Positions 8,588 through 28,743 of a stretch of DNA of 64,000 nucleotides are shown here, in pieces. This DNA is from an uncultured Acidobacteriota bacterium (GTDB lineage Bacteria > Acidobacteriota > Vicinamibacteria > Vicinamibacterales > CAVVIG01), in contig CAVVNL010000004.1 in the NCBI GenBank assembly GCA_963749565.1, forward strand, positions 142,628 through 206,627, given 5' to 3'. The translations under genes were made by a program, and so were the position numbers. Each line of letters begins with the position of its first letter. Position 1 is the stretch's first letter. The notes under the pieces were generated by a model that was not told where the DNA came from, ran no database searches, and worked only from the letters and a program-made list of their open reading frames with translations.

Positions 8588-10893
8588 GGCCACTCCTCCG
8601 AGTTCCAACACGTCCGCGGGCACCAGGAAATGGGCCGGCCGGCTTTCGACCACGACCTCGCCGTCGCGAGCCTTGACCACGAAGTGCGAGCCTTCCTTCC
8701 AGCTGACGCTGATCGGCAGCTTGATCTTTTCGTCGATGGCGCGCTTGAGGAAGCGGGCGCCGAAGCCGAGGTTGTAACCCTGGGTCACAATCAACTCGAG
8801 CGCGCTGTCATCGATCTGCAGCGTCTTGCCGGCCTTTGCCAGCGTCAGGGTGACCTGCGCGAGATAGTGCTTCGCGATCTCCCGCACCTCGTCGTGCGCG
8901 AGCGGCGCGAACAGGACGACCTCGTCGATCCGGTTGCGGAACTCCGGCGAGAAGCGGCGTTCCAGCTCGCGGAACACCTCGCCCTTCACCTGGTCGACGC
9001 CGACGTTGCGGGCACGGAAGCCCATCGAGCTCGTGAGCTGCCGGAAGTGTTCCGAGCCCAGATTGGACGTCATGATCACGATCGCGTCGCTCAGATAGAC
9101 GCGTTTGCCCCGGCCATCGGTGAGCCAGCCCTCGTCGAACGCCTGCAGGAAGAGATTGAGCAGGCTGGGACTCGCCTTTTCCACTTCGTCGAGGAGGATG
9201 ACCGTGAAGGGATTGTCCTTCAACTGGGTCGTCAGGATTCCACCGCGCTCGCTGCCGACGATGCCCCGCGGCATCCCGATCAGCTTGTCCACGGCGACGC
9301 TGCCGTCCTGATACTCGGACATGTCCACGCGAATCATCTTCTTTTCGTCGCCGAACAGGAACGCGGCAACCGCCTTCGCGAGCTCGGTTTTCCCGACACC
9401 GGTCGGGCCGAGGAACAGCAGCACTCCGTCGGGCCGATCGAATCCGTCCTTGAGCGGCCCCTTGTTCAGCACCAGGCGGCGGGCCACGGCCTTGATGGCG
9501 TTCGTCTGGCCGACGACCCGTTGCGCGAGGCTCTCCTCGATGTTCTTGAAGCGATCGGTGACGTCGCGGTAGACCATGTCCTCGGGGATCTGCGCGGCAT
9601 GTGAGATGACCGACATCACGTCCTGCCGGTTGACCTCCCACCGGCGGTCCACTTCGGCGCGGACGGCTGCCGTGTCGAGCCATCCAATCACCTTGTCGGG
9701 CAGGTGCAGGTGCCGCATGTATCGCGGCGACATGTCGATCGCGGCTTCGAGCGCTTCGTCGAGCACGCGGACCGAGTAGTTTCTTTCGAGCCGCGGGCGG
9801 AGGTTATAGAGAATCCGCCGCGTTTCCTCGAGCGTCGGCTCGGCCACCACGACCGACCGGAAGCGGCGCGCGAAGGCTTCGTCTTCCTGGATATATTCCT
9901 TGTACTCGCTGAGCGTCGTGGCGCCGACCATTCGGATCTCGCCGCGCGAGAGGGCCGACTTGAGCACGTTGGCCGCGTCCGACGGCGCGCCGAGCGCCGA
10001 GCCGGCGCCGACCATGGTGTGGGCCTCGTCCACGAACAGGATGAGGTTGGTCCGTTCCTTCAGCTCGCGGATGACGTTCTGGATGCGATCCTCGAACATG
10101 CCGCGCAGCATGGTGCCCGCGACCATGGCGTTCATCTGGAGGTTGACGATCTGGCAGTCGCGGAGACGGACCGGCACGCCCTCCGGTTCGAACTCGATCC
10201 GCCTGGCGAGCCCCTCGACGATGGCGGTCTTGCCGACGCCCGGCTCGCCGATGAGCATCACGGAATTGGCGCGCTCGCGGTGGCAGAGAATCTCGAGGAC
10301 CTGCTGGATCTCCTTGTCGCGCCCGTACACCGGCGGCAGCTTGTCCTGGCGCGCCAGCAAGTTGAGGTTGGTCGCGAAGTGTTTGAGGAACGGCGGCAGC
10401 TCGAAGCGCTTCTTCAAGCGCTCCTCGCGCAGTTCCATGTCACGAACGCGGACGCCAAGCCGGGCCACCAGCACCTCGGGCTCGACGCCATTCCGCCGCA
10501 GGATGGACACGGGCACTCCCTGCATCTCTTCGAACACGGCGGAGAACAGGTCGACCGACTCGATGTTCTGGCGTCCCGCCCGGGTCCCGTGGTGGAGGGC
10601 AAGCTTGCACACAAGCTTGGTCGAAGGCGACACCCGCAGGTCGCGCCCGGCAAACGACGGCACCAGGTGCAGATGCTCCTCGATTGCCTGGAGCACCGCA
10701 TGCGGATTGACCTCGACGTCTCGCATGATGGCGGAGAACATGTCCCACTCGACCTGTGCGAACGCCAAAAACAGGTGCTCGTTGGTCAGCAACGCATGCT
10801 CGCGACGGCGCGCTTCTTCAATGGCGCGGTCGATGATGCGCTGCGCGGTCTCCCCGATCTTGCCTGCCGCGATGTCGAGATCTTCTACCTGCA
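8585..10893 (-). CDS. Clp/Hsp100-family AAA+ ATPase (ClpA/ClpC-like, two nucleotide-binding domains)
   Basis: Walker A motifs GEPGVGKTAIVEGLA and GPTGVGKTELAKAVA, Walker B motifs LILFVDEAH and VILLDEVEKA, and a Clp_N-like N-domain. The likely start is the GTG at 10893, preceded by GGGGGAGGA. The ORF-track start (TTG at 10924) is the alternative. Confidence 0.85.
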
Positions 10894-20383: not shown

Positions 20384-22086
<1,703 letters not shown>

Positions 22087-22245
22087 ACGAACTATGACTA
22101 TATCGTGAATTTGGCAACCGGGTCATTGGATAATCCGAGTTGGTCAGGTGTATCGTGCTGGTCTCGGTCGCCAGGAAATTGGTCCGTTTTGCGTGTTCGC
22201 ACATTGCCGGTTTTTCGTTATCTGTAAGGTAGTGAGGCAAGTTCA

Positions 22246-23679
22246 ATGAACACATCGCTATGCAGGAAACTGTTTTTCTACGTCGTTCCGCTGGCTGCGG
22301 CCACCCTGTGGGTGGCCCACACCCGGAGTGTAATCGCGGACTCCAGGGTGGAAGCCGACTTCAACGGCGACGGTCATGCGGATCTGGCGATCGGGCTTCC
22401 TTTCGAGGACGTAGGAGGGATAGTCAACGCCGGCGCGGTGAACATCATTTACGGCTCTGAGGTAGGACTGGCGCCCGCCGGGAATCAGTTCTGGACGCAG
22501 GATAGCGATGGAATCGAAGGCGTTGCCGAATCGGAAGACCAGTTTGGAAGGGCGCTCGCTGCTGGCGACTTCAATGGCGATGGCTGGCATGACCTGGCGA
22601 TCGGGGTAGCACTTGAATCCGTTGGAACCCTGGAGTTCGCGGGAGCCGTGAACATTCTCTACGGCTCGGCTGCTGGTCTCACCGCCGCGGGAGACCAGAT
22701 CTGGACCCAGAACAGCGAGGGAATTCTGGGTGTTGCCGAATCCGACGATCACTTTGGGGACGCCCTGAGTGCGGGCGACTTCAACGGCGACGGCCGCGAT
22801 GATCTGGCCATCGGCGCCACCGGGGACAGTGTTGGAAGTGTGAACGGCGCGGGGGCCGTGAGCATCGTCTACGGCTCTGCCGCCGGCCTGACTGCTACTG
22901 GGAACCAGATTTGGACTCAAGATAGCCCGGGAATCGACGACCAGGCAGACGCCTTCGACAGGTTCGGATTCGCTTTGACGGCAGGGGATTTCGACGGGGA
23001 CGGCCGCGATGACCTGGCCGTCGGCGTACCCGACGAGGACTTCGGCGGATTCGGCGGTCCGGTTAGCGCCGGCGCTGTGCACGTTTTGCGAGGCTCGGCC
23101 GCTGGTCTAACGGCCGAAGGGAACCAGTTTTGGACGCAGGACAGCCCTGGAATACAGGGCGTGCTCGAAGGAGGCGACCATTTCGGTTCTAGCCTCGCCG
23201 CGGGCGACTTCAATTTCGACGGGCAAGACGACCTCGCCGTCGGAAGTCCCCTCGAAGACATTGGAAGCATCCTGCACGCCGGCGCCGTGAACGTCCTGTA
23301 TGGGACGCTCTTTTCTGGGCTCACGGCGGTCGACAATCAGATCTGGTCGCAAGAGAGCCCTGGAATCAACGGTGTGGCTGAACAGACTGACAATTTCGGA
23401 CGGGTGGTGGCTGGCGACTTCGATGGAAACGGCGTGGATGACTTGGCGATCGGTGTTCCTAGAGAGACTGTCGGGAATGTGGAGGCGGGCGCTGTGAACG
23501 TCCTCTATGGTGTGTCAGGAGCCGGGCTGACGTCGCTCAACAACCAGATCTGGTCGCAAGATAGCCCCGGGATCGACGGTATCGCGGAAAGCGGCGACTT
23601 CGTCTTGTGCGGGATACCCCTGGCGGTTAAGAAACGACTATATCACGCGATTTTTCTGAGGATGAAGCACTTCAGGTAG
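22246..23679 (+). CDS. FG-GAP/VCBS (integrin-alpha-like) repeat protein, 3-prime truncated at a repeat junction
   Basis: Signal-like MNTSLCRKLFFYVVPLAAATLWVA and six ~65-aa units (GDFNGDG..DLAIG...AGAVN.LYGS..GL...NQIWTQDSPGI.G.AE..D.FG..LA). The sixth unit breaks off at AESGDF, exactly where direct-repeat copy B starts (23602). Codon third positions are visibly less GC-rich than in neighbouring genes. Confidence 0.75.
   Translation: MNTSLCRKLFFYVVPLAAATLWVAHTRSVIADSRVEADFNGDGHADLAIGLPFEDVGGIVNAGAVNIIYGSEVGLAPAGNQFWTQDSDGIEGVAESEDQFGRALAAGDFNGDGWHDLAIGVALESVGTLEFAGAVNILYGSAAGLTAAGDQIWTQNSEGILGVAESDDHFGDALSAGDFNGDGRDDLAIGATGDSVGSVNGAGAVSIVYGSAAGLTATGNQIWTQDSPGIDDQADAFDRFGFALTAGDFDGDGRDDLAVGVPDEDFGGFGGPVSAGAVHVLRGSAAGLTAEGNQFWTQDSPGIQGVLEGGDHFGSSLAAGDFNFDGQDDLAVGSPLEDIGSILHAGAVNVLYGTLFSGLTAVDNQIWSQESPGINGVAEQTDNFGRVVAGDFDGNGVDDLAIGVPRETVGNVEAGAVNVLYGVSGAGLTSLNNQIWSQDSPGIDGIAESGDFVLCGIPLAVKKRLYHAIFLRMKHFR
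23602..23644. repeat. direct repeat copy B (orphan 5-prime riboswitch fragment plus TATAGT box)
   Basis: gtcttgtgcgggatacccctggcggttaagaaacgactatatc. It overlaps the rlmI stop codon (23643-23645) and supplies the last codons of the FG-GAP ORF. Confidence 0.85.
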
Positions 23680-24814
23680 TACGTCTCCGGCACGCCGAGC
23701 AGGACGGGATGATCGCGTCCCTGCATCCGCTTTTCGACGACCGTCACGTGCACCCGGGCATCGACCGCCGCTTCGTACACGATCTCGGCGAACGCGGCCT
23801 CGCCGATGTTGTACGAGCAGCTGCAGGTCACCAGCGTGCCGCCCGGATTGAGCAGCTTCAGCGCGCGCAGATTGATCTCCTTGTATCCGGACGTCGCTTT
23901 GGCGATCGACGCCTTGTTCTTCGCGAACGCCGGCGGATCGAGCACGATGGTGTCGAACCGCTCGCGAAGCCGCTCGAGCCCGCGCAGCTCGTCGAACACG
24001 TTCCCCACGCGCGCGTCGACCGCCACGCCATTTCTGGCGGCATTCGCGCGCAGCCGGGCGATGGCGTCTTCGGAGGCGTCGATGGCGATCGTTTCCTCGC
24101 ATCGCCGTCCGAGCGCAAGCGCGAACCCGCCGTGGTAGCTGAAGCAGTCGAGCAGGCGCCCTCGCGCGTAGCCGGCGGCCGCCGCCCGGTTCTCGCGTTG
24201 ATCGAGAAACAGCCCCGTCTTCTGGCCCTTGCGCAAGTCGACGTCGTACTCGATGCCCGACTCGGTGACGGTCGACCGTCTCCGGAATCTCCCCGGAAAG
24301 CACGTCAACGTGCTGCTCGAGGCCCTCGAGCACCCGCGTGCGAGGATCGTTGCGCGCGAGAATCCCGCGCGGATGCAGCAGATCGTTCAACGCCGCGACC
24401 ACGGCCGGCAGGAGGCGATCCATGCCCTGAGACAGCGCCTGCACGACGAGATATTCGCCATAACGATCGACGATGAGCGACGGGAGCAGATCGGCCTCTC
24501 CGTGCACGAGGCGGTACGCCGTCGCGTCGATGGCGAGCGAGTGCGCGGAATGCGATGGCCGATTCGATGCGCCGGCGGATCAGCCCTTCGTCCGCCGGCT
24601 TCTCTCCGTCCGTCAGCATCCGGAGCGCGATCTGCGACGCGCTGCTGTAGAGGGCATGGCCGAGCGGACGTCCGCGCGGGTCGCGCACCAGCACGATGTC
24701 GCCCGCTTCGGCGCGGACATCGGCCAGATCCGCGCGATAGATCCACGGATGGCCGCCGCTCACCCGCTGCTCGCCGCGGGCGGAGATGACGACGACGGAG
24801 TTCATGTCACTCAT
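23643..24814 (-). CDS. rlmI: 23S rRNA (cytosine-C5)-methyltransferase RlmI-like (two frame breaks)
   Basis: PUA-like N-terminus (GHPWIYRADLADV), then YRLVHGEADLLPSLIVDRYGEYLVVQ, and an MTase core (GLFLDQRENR, LDCFSYHGGFAL, VLDPPAFAK, LVTCSCS). +1 breaks near 24525 and 24290 join ORFs 24305..24844, 23638..24507 and 23643..24308. Confidence 0.8.
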
Positions 24815-25348: not shown

Positions 25349-26617
25349 ATGACGACAGAGACCACTACCGCCATGCTGCGCACGCTCGCCGAGACCGACC
25401 CCGAGGTGGCGCAGGCGATCCGCGACGAGCGCGAACGGCAGAACAACGGCATCGAGCTGATCGCGTCGGAAAACTTCGTCAGCCGCGCCGTCCTCGAAGC
25501 CGCCGGCTCTGTTCTGACGAACAAATACGCCGAGGGCTATCCCGGCCGGCGGTACTACGGCGGCTGCGAATTCGTCGACGTCGTCGAGCGCGCCGCGATC
25601 GCGCGCGCGAAGGCGCTCTTTGGCGCCGACCACGCCAACGTGCAGCCTCACTCGGGCGCGCAGGCGAACATGGCGGTGTATTTCGCGCTGCTCAAGCCGG
25701 GCGACACCGTGCTCGGCATGAACCTCGCGCACGGCGGCCACCTGACGCACGGCCACCCGCTCAATTTTTCGGGCAAGCTCTACACGATCGTTCCCTATGG
25801 CGTCCGGAAGTCGGACGAGCGGATCGATTACGACGAGCTCGATCGGCTGGCGGACGAGCACAAGCCCAGGATGATCATCGTCGGCGCGAGCGCCTATCCC
25901 CGCATCATCGACTTCGGGCGGATCCGGGCGGCGGCCGATCGAATCGGTGCCGCGGTCATGACGGACATGGCGCACATCGCCGGACTGGTGGCGGCGGGCC
26001 TCCATCCCAGCCCCGTGCCGCACTCCGACTTCGTGACGACCACGACGCACAAGACGTTGAGGGGGCCGCGGGCGGGCATGGTGCTGTGCCGCGAGCAGCA
26101 TGCGAAGGAAATCGACAAGTCGGTGTTCCCCGGGGTGCAGGGCGGTCCGCTCATGCACATCATCGCCGCCAAGGCGGTCTGCTTCAAGGAAGCGGGCGAG
26201 CCGGCCTTCAAGGAGTACCAGACGCAGATCACCGCGAACGCCAGGCGGCTGGCGGACGCGCTGTCAACTGCCGGCTTCCGGCTGGTCAGCGGCGGTACCG
26301 ACAATCACCTGATGCTCGTGGACGTGTTCTCGAAGGGCATCACGGGCAAGGCGGCTGAAGCCGCGCTCGGCAAGGCAGGCATCACGGTCAACAAGAACGC
26401 GATTCCGTTCGACCAGAATCCCCCGATGGTGGCCAGCGGCATCCGCGTCGGCACGCCGGCAGTGACGACGCGAGGCATGCGCGAGCCGCAGATGGAAACC
26501 ATCAGCGAGCTCATCGCGCGGGCCCTGAAGACCCCCGACGACGATCGGGCGCTCGGAATGATCAAGACGGAAGTCGAGACGCTGTGCCGGAAGTTCCCGC
26601 TGTATCCGGAGGTCTGA
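25349..26617 (+). CDS. glyA: serine hydroxymethyltransferase
   Basis: The ATG at 25349 gives [20 protein letters not shown]. Also [26 protein letters not shown] and [12 protein letters not shown]. Intact. Confidence 0.95.
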
Positions 26618-28743
26618 GCGAGTCCGTCCAGGCCATCTTCGCGCCCGGCGGCGCGCTGGCCCGGGCGATTCCCGGCTTCGAGGGCCGTCCCGGACAGATC
26701 GAGATGGCCGTCGCCGTCGCCCGGCGGTTCGAAGCGGGCGGCGTGCTCCTCGCCGAGGCGGGGACCGGCACGGGGAAGACGCTGGCGTACCTGGTTCCCG
26801 CGATTCTCAGCCGCCAGCGGGTGCTGATTTCGACGGGCACCAAGAACCTCCAGGAACAGATCTATTTCAAGGACATCCCCGCATTGCGGGACGCGCTCGG
26901 TGTGCCCTTCACGGCGACGTACATGAAGGGGCGGGCGAACTACCTCTGCCTGCATCGCCTCGATCAGCTGGATCCGGACGGGCGGGAGCGGCAGGAGGGG
27001 CAGGACAGGCAGGAAACATTCGTTCCAGCCCGTCCCGCCTTTCCCGCCCTTCCTGCCTTCTCCCGAGCGTCGGACGCTGCGGTGAACGTCTTCCTGCCGA
27101 TCATCCGCGAGTGGTCGGCGCGGACGGAGACGGGCGATCGCGCGGAGCTCGCCGACCTGCCCGAAGACGTGCCGGTGTGGAACGACGTGTCGGCGACCGC
27201 CGAAACGTGCCTCGGAACGGACTGCCCGCGTTACGACGACTGTTTCGTGACCCGGATGCGTCAGCGCGCCGCCGCTTCCGACGTCGTCATCGTCAACCAT
27301 CACCTGCTCTGCGCCGACGCCGCGGTCCGGCAGAACGCCTTCGGGGAAGTCATCCCGGCCTGCGCCAACGCGATCATCGACGAAGCGCATCAGCTCGAGG
27401 ACGTGGCGACGCAGTATTTCGGCTATAGCGTCAGCAACTACCGTCTGGAAGAACTGGCTCGGGACGTCGAACGGCTGACGGCGGCCGGTGACGTCACCGA
27501 CGAACGCGGCGTCGCCGCAGCGGTTGCCGGCCTGCGCGATGGCGCCCGCGCGTTCTTCGGCGATCTGGCCCTGGCGCATCGCAGCACGGATCGCGTTCGT
27601 GGCGAGGAACGCGTGCGCGCCAGCTCGTCGTCCCTTCTGCAAGCAGCCGAGGCAGCGGCGCAACTGACGGGCGCACTCGATCTCGTCGAGGCCGCCTTCA
27701 CGGTCCGGCTAAAGCCGGACACTACGACTACGACTCCGAACCATTCAGTACAGCGTCCGGCTTCAGCCGGACCGTGATCCCGACGGCGACTCCGACAGAA
27801 CGAGGCGGTCGCGACGCTCGCCCGACGCGCTGCCGCGCTACGCGACGAAATCAGGCTCCTGCTGCGCGCGGGCGACGCCGACTTCGTATATTTTGTCGAG
27901 TTCCGCGGGCGGGGCATTTTCCTCAGGGCCGCGCCGGTGGACGTCTCGGCCATCGTTCGGGAATTGCTGCTGGATCGGATGCGCACGACCATTCTCACGT
28001 CCGCGACGCTCACCGTGGACGGCACCTTCGAGTACATCCGGAAGCGGCTTGGCATCAGGGGCGCGGATGAGGTCTGCCTGCCGTCGGAGTTCGATTTCGA
28101 GCAACAGGCCATCATGTATCTCCCGCGGCGCATGCCGGATCCGCGGTCGAGCGATTTCCCGCTGGCGGCGGGCCGCGAAGTCGTCGAGATCCTGAAACGA
28201 ACGCGCGGACGGGCTTTCGTCCTGTTCACCAGCTACGCCACGATGCGCGATGTGCTGGGCATCGCCGAGATGGCGCTCGAGTATCCGATCTTCGCGCAGG
28301 GCTCGGCTCCCCGCACCCAGTTGCTCAAGCTCTTCCGTGAGACGCCGCACGCCGTGCTGTTTGCCACGTCCAGTTTCTGGCAGGGCGTTGACGTCGCGGG
28401 CGAGGCGCTGAGCTGCGTGATCATCGACAAGCTGCCGTTCGCCTCGCCGTCCGATCCGGTCACCGCGGCCAGGATCGATGCCGTCCGCGAGCGCGGCGGC
28501 GATGCCTTCGGCGAGTATCAGGTTCCCCTCGCCATTCTGGCGCTCCAGCAGGGACTGGGACGCTTGATCCGTCACCGGCAGGACCGCGGCGTGCTTGCCG
28601 TGCTCGATCCACGGCTGCGCACAAAGGGGTACGGGCGGCGGTTTCTCGCTTCGTTCCCACCGGCGCCGCAGGTGTCGGATTTCGCCCGTATCGAGGCCTT
28701 TTTTTGCCCTTCGGCCGAGGCGGTGAAAAAGAGTAAACTGTAG
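26584..28743 (+). CDS. DinG/Rad3(XPD)-family ATP-dependent DNA helicase, single frame but interrupted by an in-frame TGA at 27775-27777
   Basis: Walker [15 protein letters not shown], Fe-S cysteines (NYLC...[12 protein letters not shown]), DEAH box [10 protein letters not shown], and C-terminal motifs [28 protein letters not shown]. ORFs 26584..27777 and 27937..28743 share a frame, and the intervening codons are open. Confidence 0.8.
27703..27772. repeat. REP doublet embedded in the helicase ORF
   Basis: GTCCGGC-TAAA-GCCGGAC (27703-27720), a 34-nt spacer with ACTACG ACTACG ACT and CTAC/GTAC heads, then GTCCGGC-TTCA-GCCGGAC (27755-27772). The in-frame TGA follows 2 nt later. Confidence 0.75.

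Follow-up and report, generated by a model that had tools for sequence, protein, structure and literature searches.

A putatively foreign FG-GAP gene fragment between two copies of a thiC promoter and riboswitch segment in a Vicinamibacterales genome

How does some 1.5 kb of unrelated DNA come to lie inside a riboswitch leader, between two copies of part of that same leader? The question is raised by the junction between an rlmI-like 23S rRNA methyltransferase gene and thiC, which codes for phosphomethylpyrimidine synthase, in a 64,000-nucleotide stretch from an uncultured Acidobacteriota bacterium (assembly GCA_963749565.1, contig CAVVNL010000004.1, positions 142,628 to 206,627; hereafter the window, whose numbering is used throughout). 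The thiC gene carries a thiamine pyrophosphate (TPP) riboswitch, the 5’ part of which occurs a second time beside rlmI, and the DNA between the two copies contains a truncated gene for an FG-GAP beta-propeller. The reading favored here, at a probability of roughly 0.72, is a lineage-specific insertion of a horizontally acquired fragment of ~1.5 kb into a compact rlmI-thiC junction, captured by illegitimate end-joining with a fill-in duplication.

Read along the minus strand, the locus runs from the rlmI stop codon (23645–23643) through repeat copy B (23644–23601), the inserted DNA (23600–22105), copy A (22104–22059) and the rest of the riboswitch (to 21985) into thiC. The thiC gene (20424–21995, minus strand) is intact and codes for 523 residues (Pfam ThiC_Rad_SAM, E 3.6e-188). 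Directly upstream of it, on the same strand, a complete TPP aptamer at 21985–22089 matches model positions 1–105 of RF00059 with 65.7 bits (E 4.7e-12; the gathering score is 54.3 bits). The AUG lies at 21995, and in the predicted fold the Shine-Dalgarno sequence and the AUG are placed in or beside the 3’ strands of P4 and P1. Given where the AUG lies, the riboswitch would be expected to control thiC at the level of translation. An initial annotation of this DNA had claimed that copy A is part of an intact TPP riboswitch ahead of thiC, and copy A is indeed the 5’ part of the full-length match.

The two copies resemble each other beyond chance. Copy A (22059–22104, 46 nt) holds a -10 box, a spacer and the riboswitch from the 5’ strand of P1 through those of P2 and P3 to the P3 loop, and is continuous with the remaining riboswitch; copy B (23601–23644, 44 nt) consists of an orphan -10 box (23637–23642) followed by the same 5’ strands and loop. 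Gapped local alignment of the pair gives 41 identities in 44 aligned positions, with 3 substitutions and one 2-nt indel. A repeat search of the window recovers a core of 33 nt at 94% identity (22059–22091 and 23601–23633), and the 64 kb contain an exact 23-mer, GTGCGGGATACCCCTGGCGGTTA, at two places only, copies A and B, against 0 occurrences expected in 100 shuffles. The direct repeat that had been reported at 22060–22104 and 23602–23644 is therefore real. A longer duplication reaching into the 3’ end of rlmI (to 22112 and 23654, an extra 8–10 nt) was considered and rejected, because the similarity of the flanks lacks significance (p about 0.5).

Copy B stops at the last base of the P3 loop (...CCCGCACAAGACG|), which is also where the FG-GAP reading frame enters it. 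It has no P3 3’ strand, no CUGAGA-type junction, no P4/P5 and no P1 3’ strand. Its opposite end shares 2 nt with the rlmI stop codon, the TCA at 23643–23645 that reads as TGA on the minus strand. An Rfam search of 21500–24200 yields no second TPP match even at E≤10. Copy B had been described as an orphan adjoining the rlmI stop, and this overlap and the single TPP match agree with that description. Because both ligand-sensing halves are missing, copy B is predicted to be unable to bind TPP. The accompanying term ‘decoy’ for this half-riboswitch implies a function without evidence and is not supported.

Comparison with relatives indicates the direction of change. ThiC places the organism in the Vicinamibacterales (Acidobacteriota), and the nearest ThiC proteins are 88–92% identical. 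Four of these close relatives have a junction that is empty. In L001 (ThiC 92% identical) the rlmI stop is followed by two bases, TATAGT, an 8-nt spacer and the aptamer; L003 (89%) has the same compact junction, and the junction is also compact on the P0123 contig (90%, 108-nt gap) and in L004 (90.6%, 149-nt gap). In all four, TATAGT, riboswitch and thiC follow the rlmI stop directly or within about 50 nt. When species-representative genomes were scanned with the RlmI C-terminal domain, 80 loci were obtained, of which 41 have thiC after rlmI on the same strand with gaps of 53 nt to 5.5 kb. This gene order is widespread in the Vicinamibacterales. The inserted DNA of the window (22105–23600, 1,496 bp, its left edge uncertain by up to about 8 nt) is absent from relatives, and no FG-GAP homologue is present in 83 related loci. 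Given the empty sites in the closest relatives and the lack of an FG-GAP gene in these 83 loci, the compact state is taken as ancestral and the insertion as private to this genome; judged by sequence comparison, it is lineage-specific. The converse history, in which the FG-GAP gene was ancestral at the junction and has been lost in relatives, can draw on the variation of the junction between lineages. It is hardly credible: the four closest relatives, and other lineages throughout the order, have the compact, empty junction, an FG-GAP gene is missing there in every relative, and the duplication and the lower GC content of the gene are derived features.

The same comparison bears out the central proposal of the initial annotation, that foreign DNA was captured in the thiC leader together with a long duplication: empty sites occur in the closest relatives, and none of the 83 loci has either an FG-GAP gene or the duplication. 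Where the junction of a relative is filled, the cargo is unrelated. The large gaps hold DNA-alkylation-repair (DNA_alkylation) proteins, MacB/FtsX permeases, an ankyrin protein, a set of STAS, GT28 and PQQ-propeller genes, DUF6962, a beta-lactamase-like protein and POTRA; filled junctions include those of L002, L006, L008–L012, L014, L033, L041, L052 and L084. Local alignment of the rlmI end against the region upstream of thiC detects no flanking repeat in 30 relatives with a filled junction, and the window alone stands out with a score of 66 (z 20.8). High scores of L050 and L074 in this test were discarded, as they are due to overlapping test windows. A separate feature is seen in L084 (ThiC 92%), where the DUF6962 insertion is bordered by a 7-nt direct repeat, GACGTGA (about 375–385 and about 1335–1345), one copy lying after the rlmI stop and the other just before a TATATT box; this repeat may be a short target duplication.

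Several properties of the insert support its being foreign and horizontally acquired. First, the FG-GAP open reading frame (ORF) has a GC content at third codon positions (GC3) of 0.69–0.70, compared with 0.865 for thiC, 0.87 for the C-terminal part of rlmI and 0.84–0.88 for glyA, in line with the lower third-position GC that had been noted for this gene. Among 52 comparison ORFs, chosen heuristically, its GC3 is the 4th lowest (mean 0.80, standard deviation 0.06; z about -1.9). Second, the left end of the insert has a GC content of 0.54–0.58. Third, the best homologues of the FG-GAP protein among 5.8 billion proteins are 57–59% identical. Fourth, the 160 nt upstream of copy A show no significant similarity to the rlmI-thiC junction regions of relatives. 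A native origin of this upstream DNA was considered, as copy A and L004 share ATTCACG(A/G)TATAGT, and was rejected because no wider similarity exists (z below 2); the shared string is possibly a short promoter-proximal motif or due to chance.

No sign of a mobile element was found. Searches of plasmid and phage collections give no match to the insert, and a mobile-element origin was rejected on that ground. The only ORF in the insert with a family match is the FG-GAP gene, and no transposase, integrase or other recombinase gene is present in it. No inverted-repeat pair joins the two insert ends at 22105 and 23600, so that terminal inverted repeats were not found, nor was a tRNA or transfer-messenger RNA (tmRNA) target at the locus. 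A junction-spanning inverted repeat (23592–23607 with 23224–23239) was set aside, since the repeat-rich FG-GAP gene has many other pairs of at least equal strength. The flanks of the insert are syntenic core genes.

These observations bear on the possibility that the locus is the remnant of a site-specifically integrated element, with the copies as attL and attR and with the integrase and most of the cargo since deleted, in the manner of a cis-mobilizable element. Integrase-mediated islands typically have direct repeats of 15–60 bp by which the target gene is restored, and the repeat here does restore the promoter and the 5’ aptamer half. Neither the insert nor the DNA beside it has an integrase or other recombinase gene, however, and the tRNA or tmRNA target is lacking. 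None of the 30 filled sites in relatives carries the repeat, so there is no recurrent attB, and the later deletion would need to have ended exactly at the repeat boundary. This origin is most improbable.

The FG-GAP gene itself informs on how the fragment ended. The ORF extends over 22246–23679 on the plus strand, opposite to rlmI and thiC, and codes for 477 residues with six Pfam FG-GAP matches (PF01839; E 7.9e-52, 172.9 bits against a cut-off of 22.1) of an integrin-alpha-like beta-propeller. Its N-terminus forms a hydrophobic signal-like segment, consistent with the signal-peptide FG-GAP gene that had been recognized on the opposite strand between the copies. Residues 1–452 are native, and the codons of residues 453–477 come from copy B and from the 3’ end of rlmI in antisense. 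Copy B is thus predicted to contribute to a non-native tail of 25 residues. The boundary 23600|23601 splits the codon for F452. The earlier statement that the sixth repeat is cut off at the copy B boundary holds for the 3’ truncation at the junction and not for the repeat, as all six DxNGDG repeats are complete and it is a closing strand or a seventh repeat that is missing.

Homologues go on with FGxALA from the junction position. They end 4–9 or 22–24 residues past it (the latter often with ...HxVYLPLVLR), or add one repeat of about 70–80 residues; most have seven repeats, but six occur naturally in a few (P0046, P0116). By this comparison the gene has lost its native stop along with about 5 to about 80 codons, comprising the closing strand and possibly a seventh repeat. 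An AlphaFold2 model (predicted local distance difference test score, pLDDT, 89.1; predicted template-modeling score, pTM, 0.88) shows a confident propeller over residues 40–450, with a first blade of three strands only and a disordered tail at 456–477 (pLDDT below 50), and the top Foldseek matches are integrin alpha propellers (probability 1.0, TM 0.5–0.58). The native C-terminal FGxALA strand that completes blade 1 in homologues is absent, its place being taken by VLCGIPLAV..., and the protein is therefore probably impaired. The tail GIPLAV...HAIFLRMKHFR was weighed as a natural end, as MAFFT aligns it with homologue ends of the form FGxALA...HxVYLPLVLR. This resemblance is read as fortuitous, because the DNA of the tail consists of riboswitch copy and antisense rlmI and AlphaFold2 gives it no structure. 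Seven of the homologues (P0002, P0003, P0004, P0008, P0026, P0063 and P0109) share a conserved C-terminal tail, H-x-V-Y-L-P-L-V-(L/V)-R-(D/N), which may be a sorting or anchoring signal.

What drives thiC after the insertion? The only sigma-70-like match in 21900–23900 is ATGACC-18-TATAGT (22097–22126, minus strand), with the -10 box (22097–22102) in copy A and the -35 element (22121–22126) in the inserted DNA. The thiC promoter had been said to have gained a new upstream context, and the position of this predicted -35 element within the insert fits that claim. A TATAGT-like hexamer (TATAGT or TATATT) ends 10–18 nt upstream of the aptamer CCAGGGG in 19 of 23 relatives regardless of the upstream gene, for example at 67–72 in L001 and 7861–7866 in L002, and this conservation supports TATAGT as the -10 box of thiC. 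Copy B retains the ancestral context TGATATAGT overlapping the rlmI stop, and is now directed into the antisense strand of the FG-GAP gene; it may fire, or pass transcripts, antisense to that gene.

Other features of thiC leaders were seen among the relatives. Several carry TGn before the hexamer, resembling an extended -10. In L031, L047, L058 and L059, thiC lies 53–118 nt after rlmI with no recognizable TPP aptamer, and the riboswitch appears to have been lost; in L047, TATAGT is just 7 nt before the ATG, and thiC looks leaderless. In L008, a tandem array of about 11-nt units (CATCACCCCGT-like, about 8640–8720) lies immediately upstream of the thiC promoter.

The differences between the copies speak to where the second one came from. 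Both share the P3 sequence CCCGCAC(G/A)AGACG. P3 is hypervariable among relatives: L001 has CCCACAUGGG, and L004, L002 and L084 have long, different hairpins. Since the two copies share a P3 that differs from those of L001, L002, L004 and L084, they arose in this or a near-identical lineage, and not in a distant donor. The lineage-specific P3 sequence is absent from metagenomes in two scans, one exact and one with a free loop. The copies differ by one base in the 28-nt aptamer part and by two substitutions and the 2-nt indel over the 18 nt of spacer and -10 box (CATAGTTCGT in one copy, CGTTTCTT in the other). These ~4 differences suggest that the event is not brand new.

The same differences could be those of two alleles, as expected if the insert had been imported from a close strain by recombination that used homology in the thiC leader, leaving one donor and one recipient copy. 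Such an import could have proceeded by a Campbell-type single crossover of a re-circularized fragment with about 45 bp or more of leader, or by homology-facilitated illegitimate recombination with thiC or the riboswitch as its anchor. The copies do differ mostly in the fast-evolving spacer and by one base only in the aptamer, but the excess (3 events against 1) is not significant by a binomial estimate (p about 0.25), and one copy alone is constrained. A length of 45 bp is also near the lower limit for a RecA-dependent crossover. The anatomy of an insert flanked by direct homology copies is that of single-crossover products in E. coli, with duplications of 109–950 bp (PMC3240628), whereas homology-facilitated illegitimate recombination normally gives a deletion and not a duplication (PMC3240628). 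As the cargo of the junction varies by lineage, a sister strain with an FG-GAP gene beside the leader is conceivable; the import would nevertheless require this earlier, unseen FG-GAP insertion in the donor, and no such donor genome is found among the 83 loci or in the protein database. Import from a close strain, the chief rival of the favored reading, is accordingly considered unlikely.

Could the arrangement be an artefact of assembly, a chimeric join or a misplaced fragment? The source is a metagenome-assembled genome, the FG-GAP protein is found on a single contig of 516,726 bp, and no independent assembly holds the FG-GAP gene or the P3 sequence of the window. Nearby genes also have single-base indels and an in-frame stop. 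The rlmI-like gene (23643–24805, minus strand) has its PUA_3 and Methyltrans_SAM Pfam domains on separate frames: tblastn and DNA alignment against the L002 orthologue reveal two extra single G bases (24544 and 24273), which split it into three reading frames, and the three segments are still 87–94% identical in protein to that orthologue. A DinG-like helicase gene (26584–28743, plus strand) has an in-frame TGA at 27775–27777 in a hypervariable linker. The neighboring frame there encodes an acidic stretch, DPDGDSD, similar to the linkers of relatives, and this suggests indels that compensate each other, or errors. The genes thiC, glyA, rpiB and other neighbors are intact. Indel errors do not account for a 1.5 kb insert with two non-identical repeat copies, however, and because the copies differ by an indel, a collapsed or bridged k-mer repeat is unlikely. 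Both junctions are coherent, with an in-frame continuation of the ORF, an intact rlmI stop and an intact aptamer, and synteny with relatives is perfect in either flank. An artefact is thus very unlikely. Single-base differences between the copies should not be over-read, given possible indel errors in the assembly.

From the anatomy of the locus, the empty sites, the uniqueness of the insert and its lower GC3, all observed directly, we infer a break-and-fill mechanism together with its promoter usage and functional consequences. In the ancestral junction, the rlmI stop, the thiC -10 box and the TPP riboswitch would have lain within a few bases of each other. A linear foreign fragment of roughly 1.5 kb, carrying the FG-GAP gene with its own upstream region and without its 3’ end, would then have entered the thiC leader. 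The chromosomal breakpoints would have been about 45 nt apart, one at the rlmI stop and -10 box and the other in the P3 loop. Capture of the end-joining type at such a staggered break, with the overhangs filled in, would leave the intervening stretch at either end of the insert. As no transposase, integrase, terminal inverted repeats or tRNA were found, illegitimate recombination is the likeliest route, in preference to transposition or site-specific integration.

The outcome would leave both flanking genes usable. The rlmI gene would keep its stop codon next to copy B, and thiC would keep its -10 box and a complete aptamer through copy A, with a -35 element now supplied by the insert. As the rlmI stop overlaps the promoter in the compact junction, any insertion that splits rlmI from thiC must bring or duplicate a promoter, and selection would explain why this version survived.

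Some points weigh against this account. A fill-in duplication of ~45 bp is long for the bacterial end-joining events that have been described. No donor and no genome of the same species was found, so that sequence cannot separate this mechanism from its rivals. Both junctions rest on one assembly, in which the rlmI frameshifts and the helicase stop suggest either long-read indel errors or local, very recent decay. The promoter assignments are consensus matches and no proof of activity. A more unusual origin can also be pictured, in which an undescribed dedicated integration mechanism cuts about 45 nt apart at a structured leader (at the 3’ edge of the P3 loop and at the -10 box), or in which the orphan promoter and half aptamer have been co-opted, for example for antisense transcription over the FG-GAP gene into the thiC leader; we assign it a very slight chance. 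Capture by illegitimate end-joining is retained as the preferred explanation.

On this explanation, the locus is a natural example of foreign DNA landing within a riboswitch leader without destroying the riboswitch. By restoring the promoter and the 5’ aptamer half, the duplication would make the insertion tolerable to selection, and it far exceeds in size the flanking duplications made by transposases. The rlmI-thiC junction is, in addition, a recurrent cargo site in the Vicinamibacterales. As a single event in one metagenome-assembled genome, with a regulatory effect that is inferred at most, its general significance is modest.

How does the locus compare with known systems? Its protein resembles bacterial FG-GAP or integrin-alpha-like propellers (PF01839) in its six 70-residue repeats, DxNGDG loops, signal peptide and propeller model, and differs from most of these homologues, which have seven repeats and an FGxALA end, in having six repeats and a disordered non-native tail in place of the strand. 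As with transposable elements, a direct repeat of host sequence flanks the inserted DNA. The usual target-site duplications of transposons are 2–14 bp, whereas the repeat here is 44–46 bp and is accompanied by neither a transposase nor terminal inverted repeats. The attL and attR of integrase islands, too, are direct repeats of tens of bp, one of which rebuilds the interrupted target while the other remains as an orphaned part of it; unlike these islands, the insert has no recombinase, its target is neither a tRNA nor a tmRNA, and relatives show no recurrent use of the site.

The closest experimental parallels are integrations of non-mobile foreign DNA beside short homology. Single crossover of trimmed, re-circularized fragments leaves an insert flanked on both sides by duplicated homology (109–950 bp, engineered), and homology-facilitated illegitimate recombination usually leaves a deletion (PMC3240628). 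Here the homology would amount to no more than about 45 bp, and a donor that carries it is not known. At a broader scale, the junction behaves like the horizontal-transfer hotspots that lie between conserved core genes (Oliveira et al. 2017, PMC5635113): conserved rlmI and thiC flank differing, unrelated cargo, or nothing, depending on the lineage. It departs from them in that the insertion lies inside a riboswitch leader and not in a neutral spacer, and in its 44–46 bp duplication, which is missing at the other filled sites. Gene gain at a variable junction is thus a known kind of event, and what is unusual here is the size of the duplication and the target in which it occurred.

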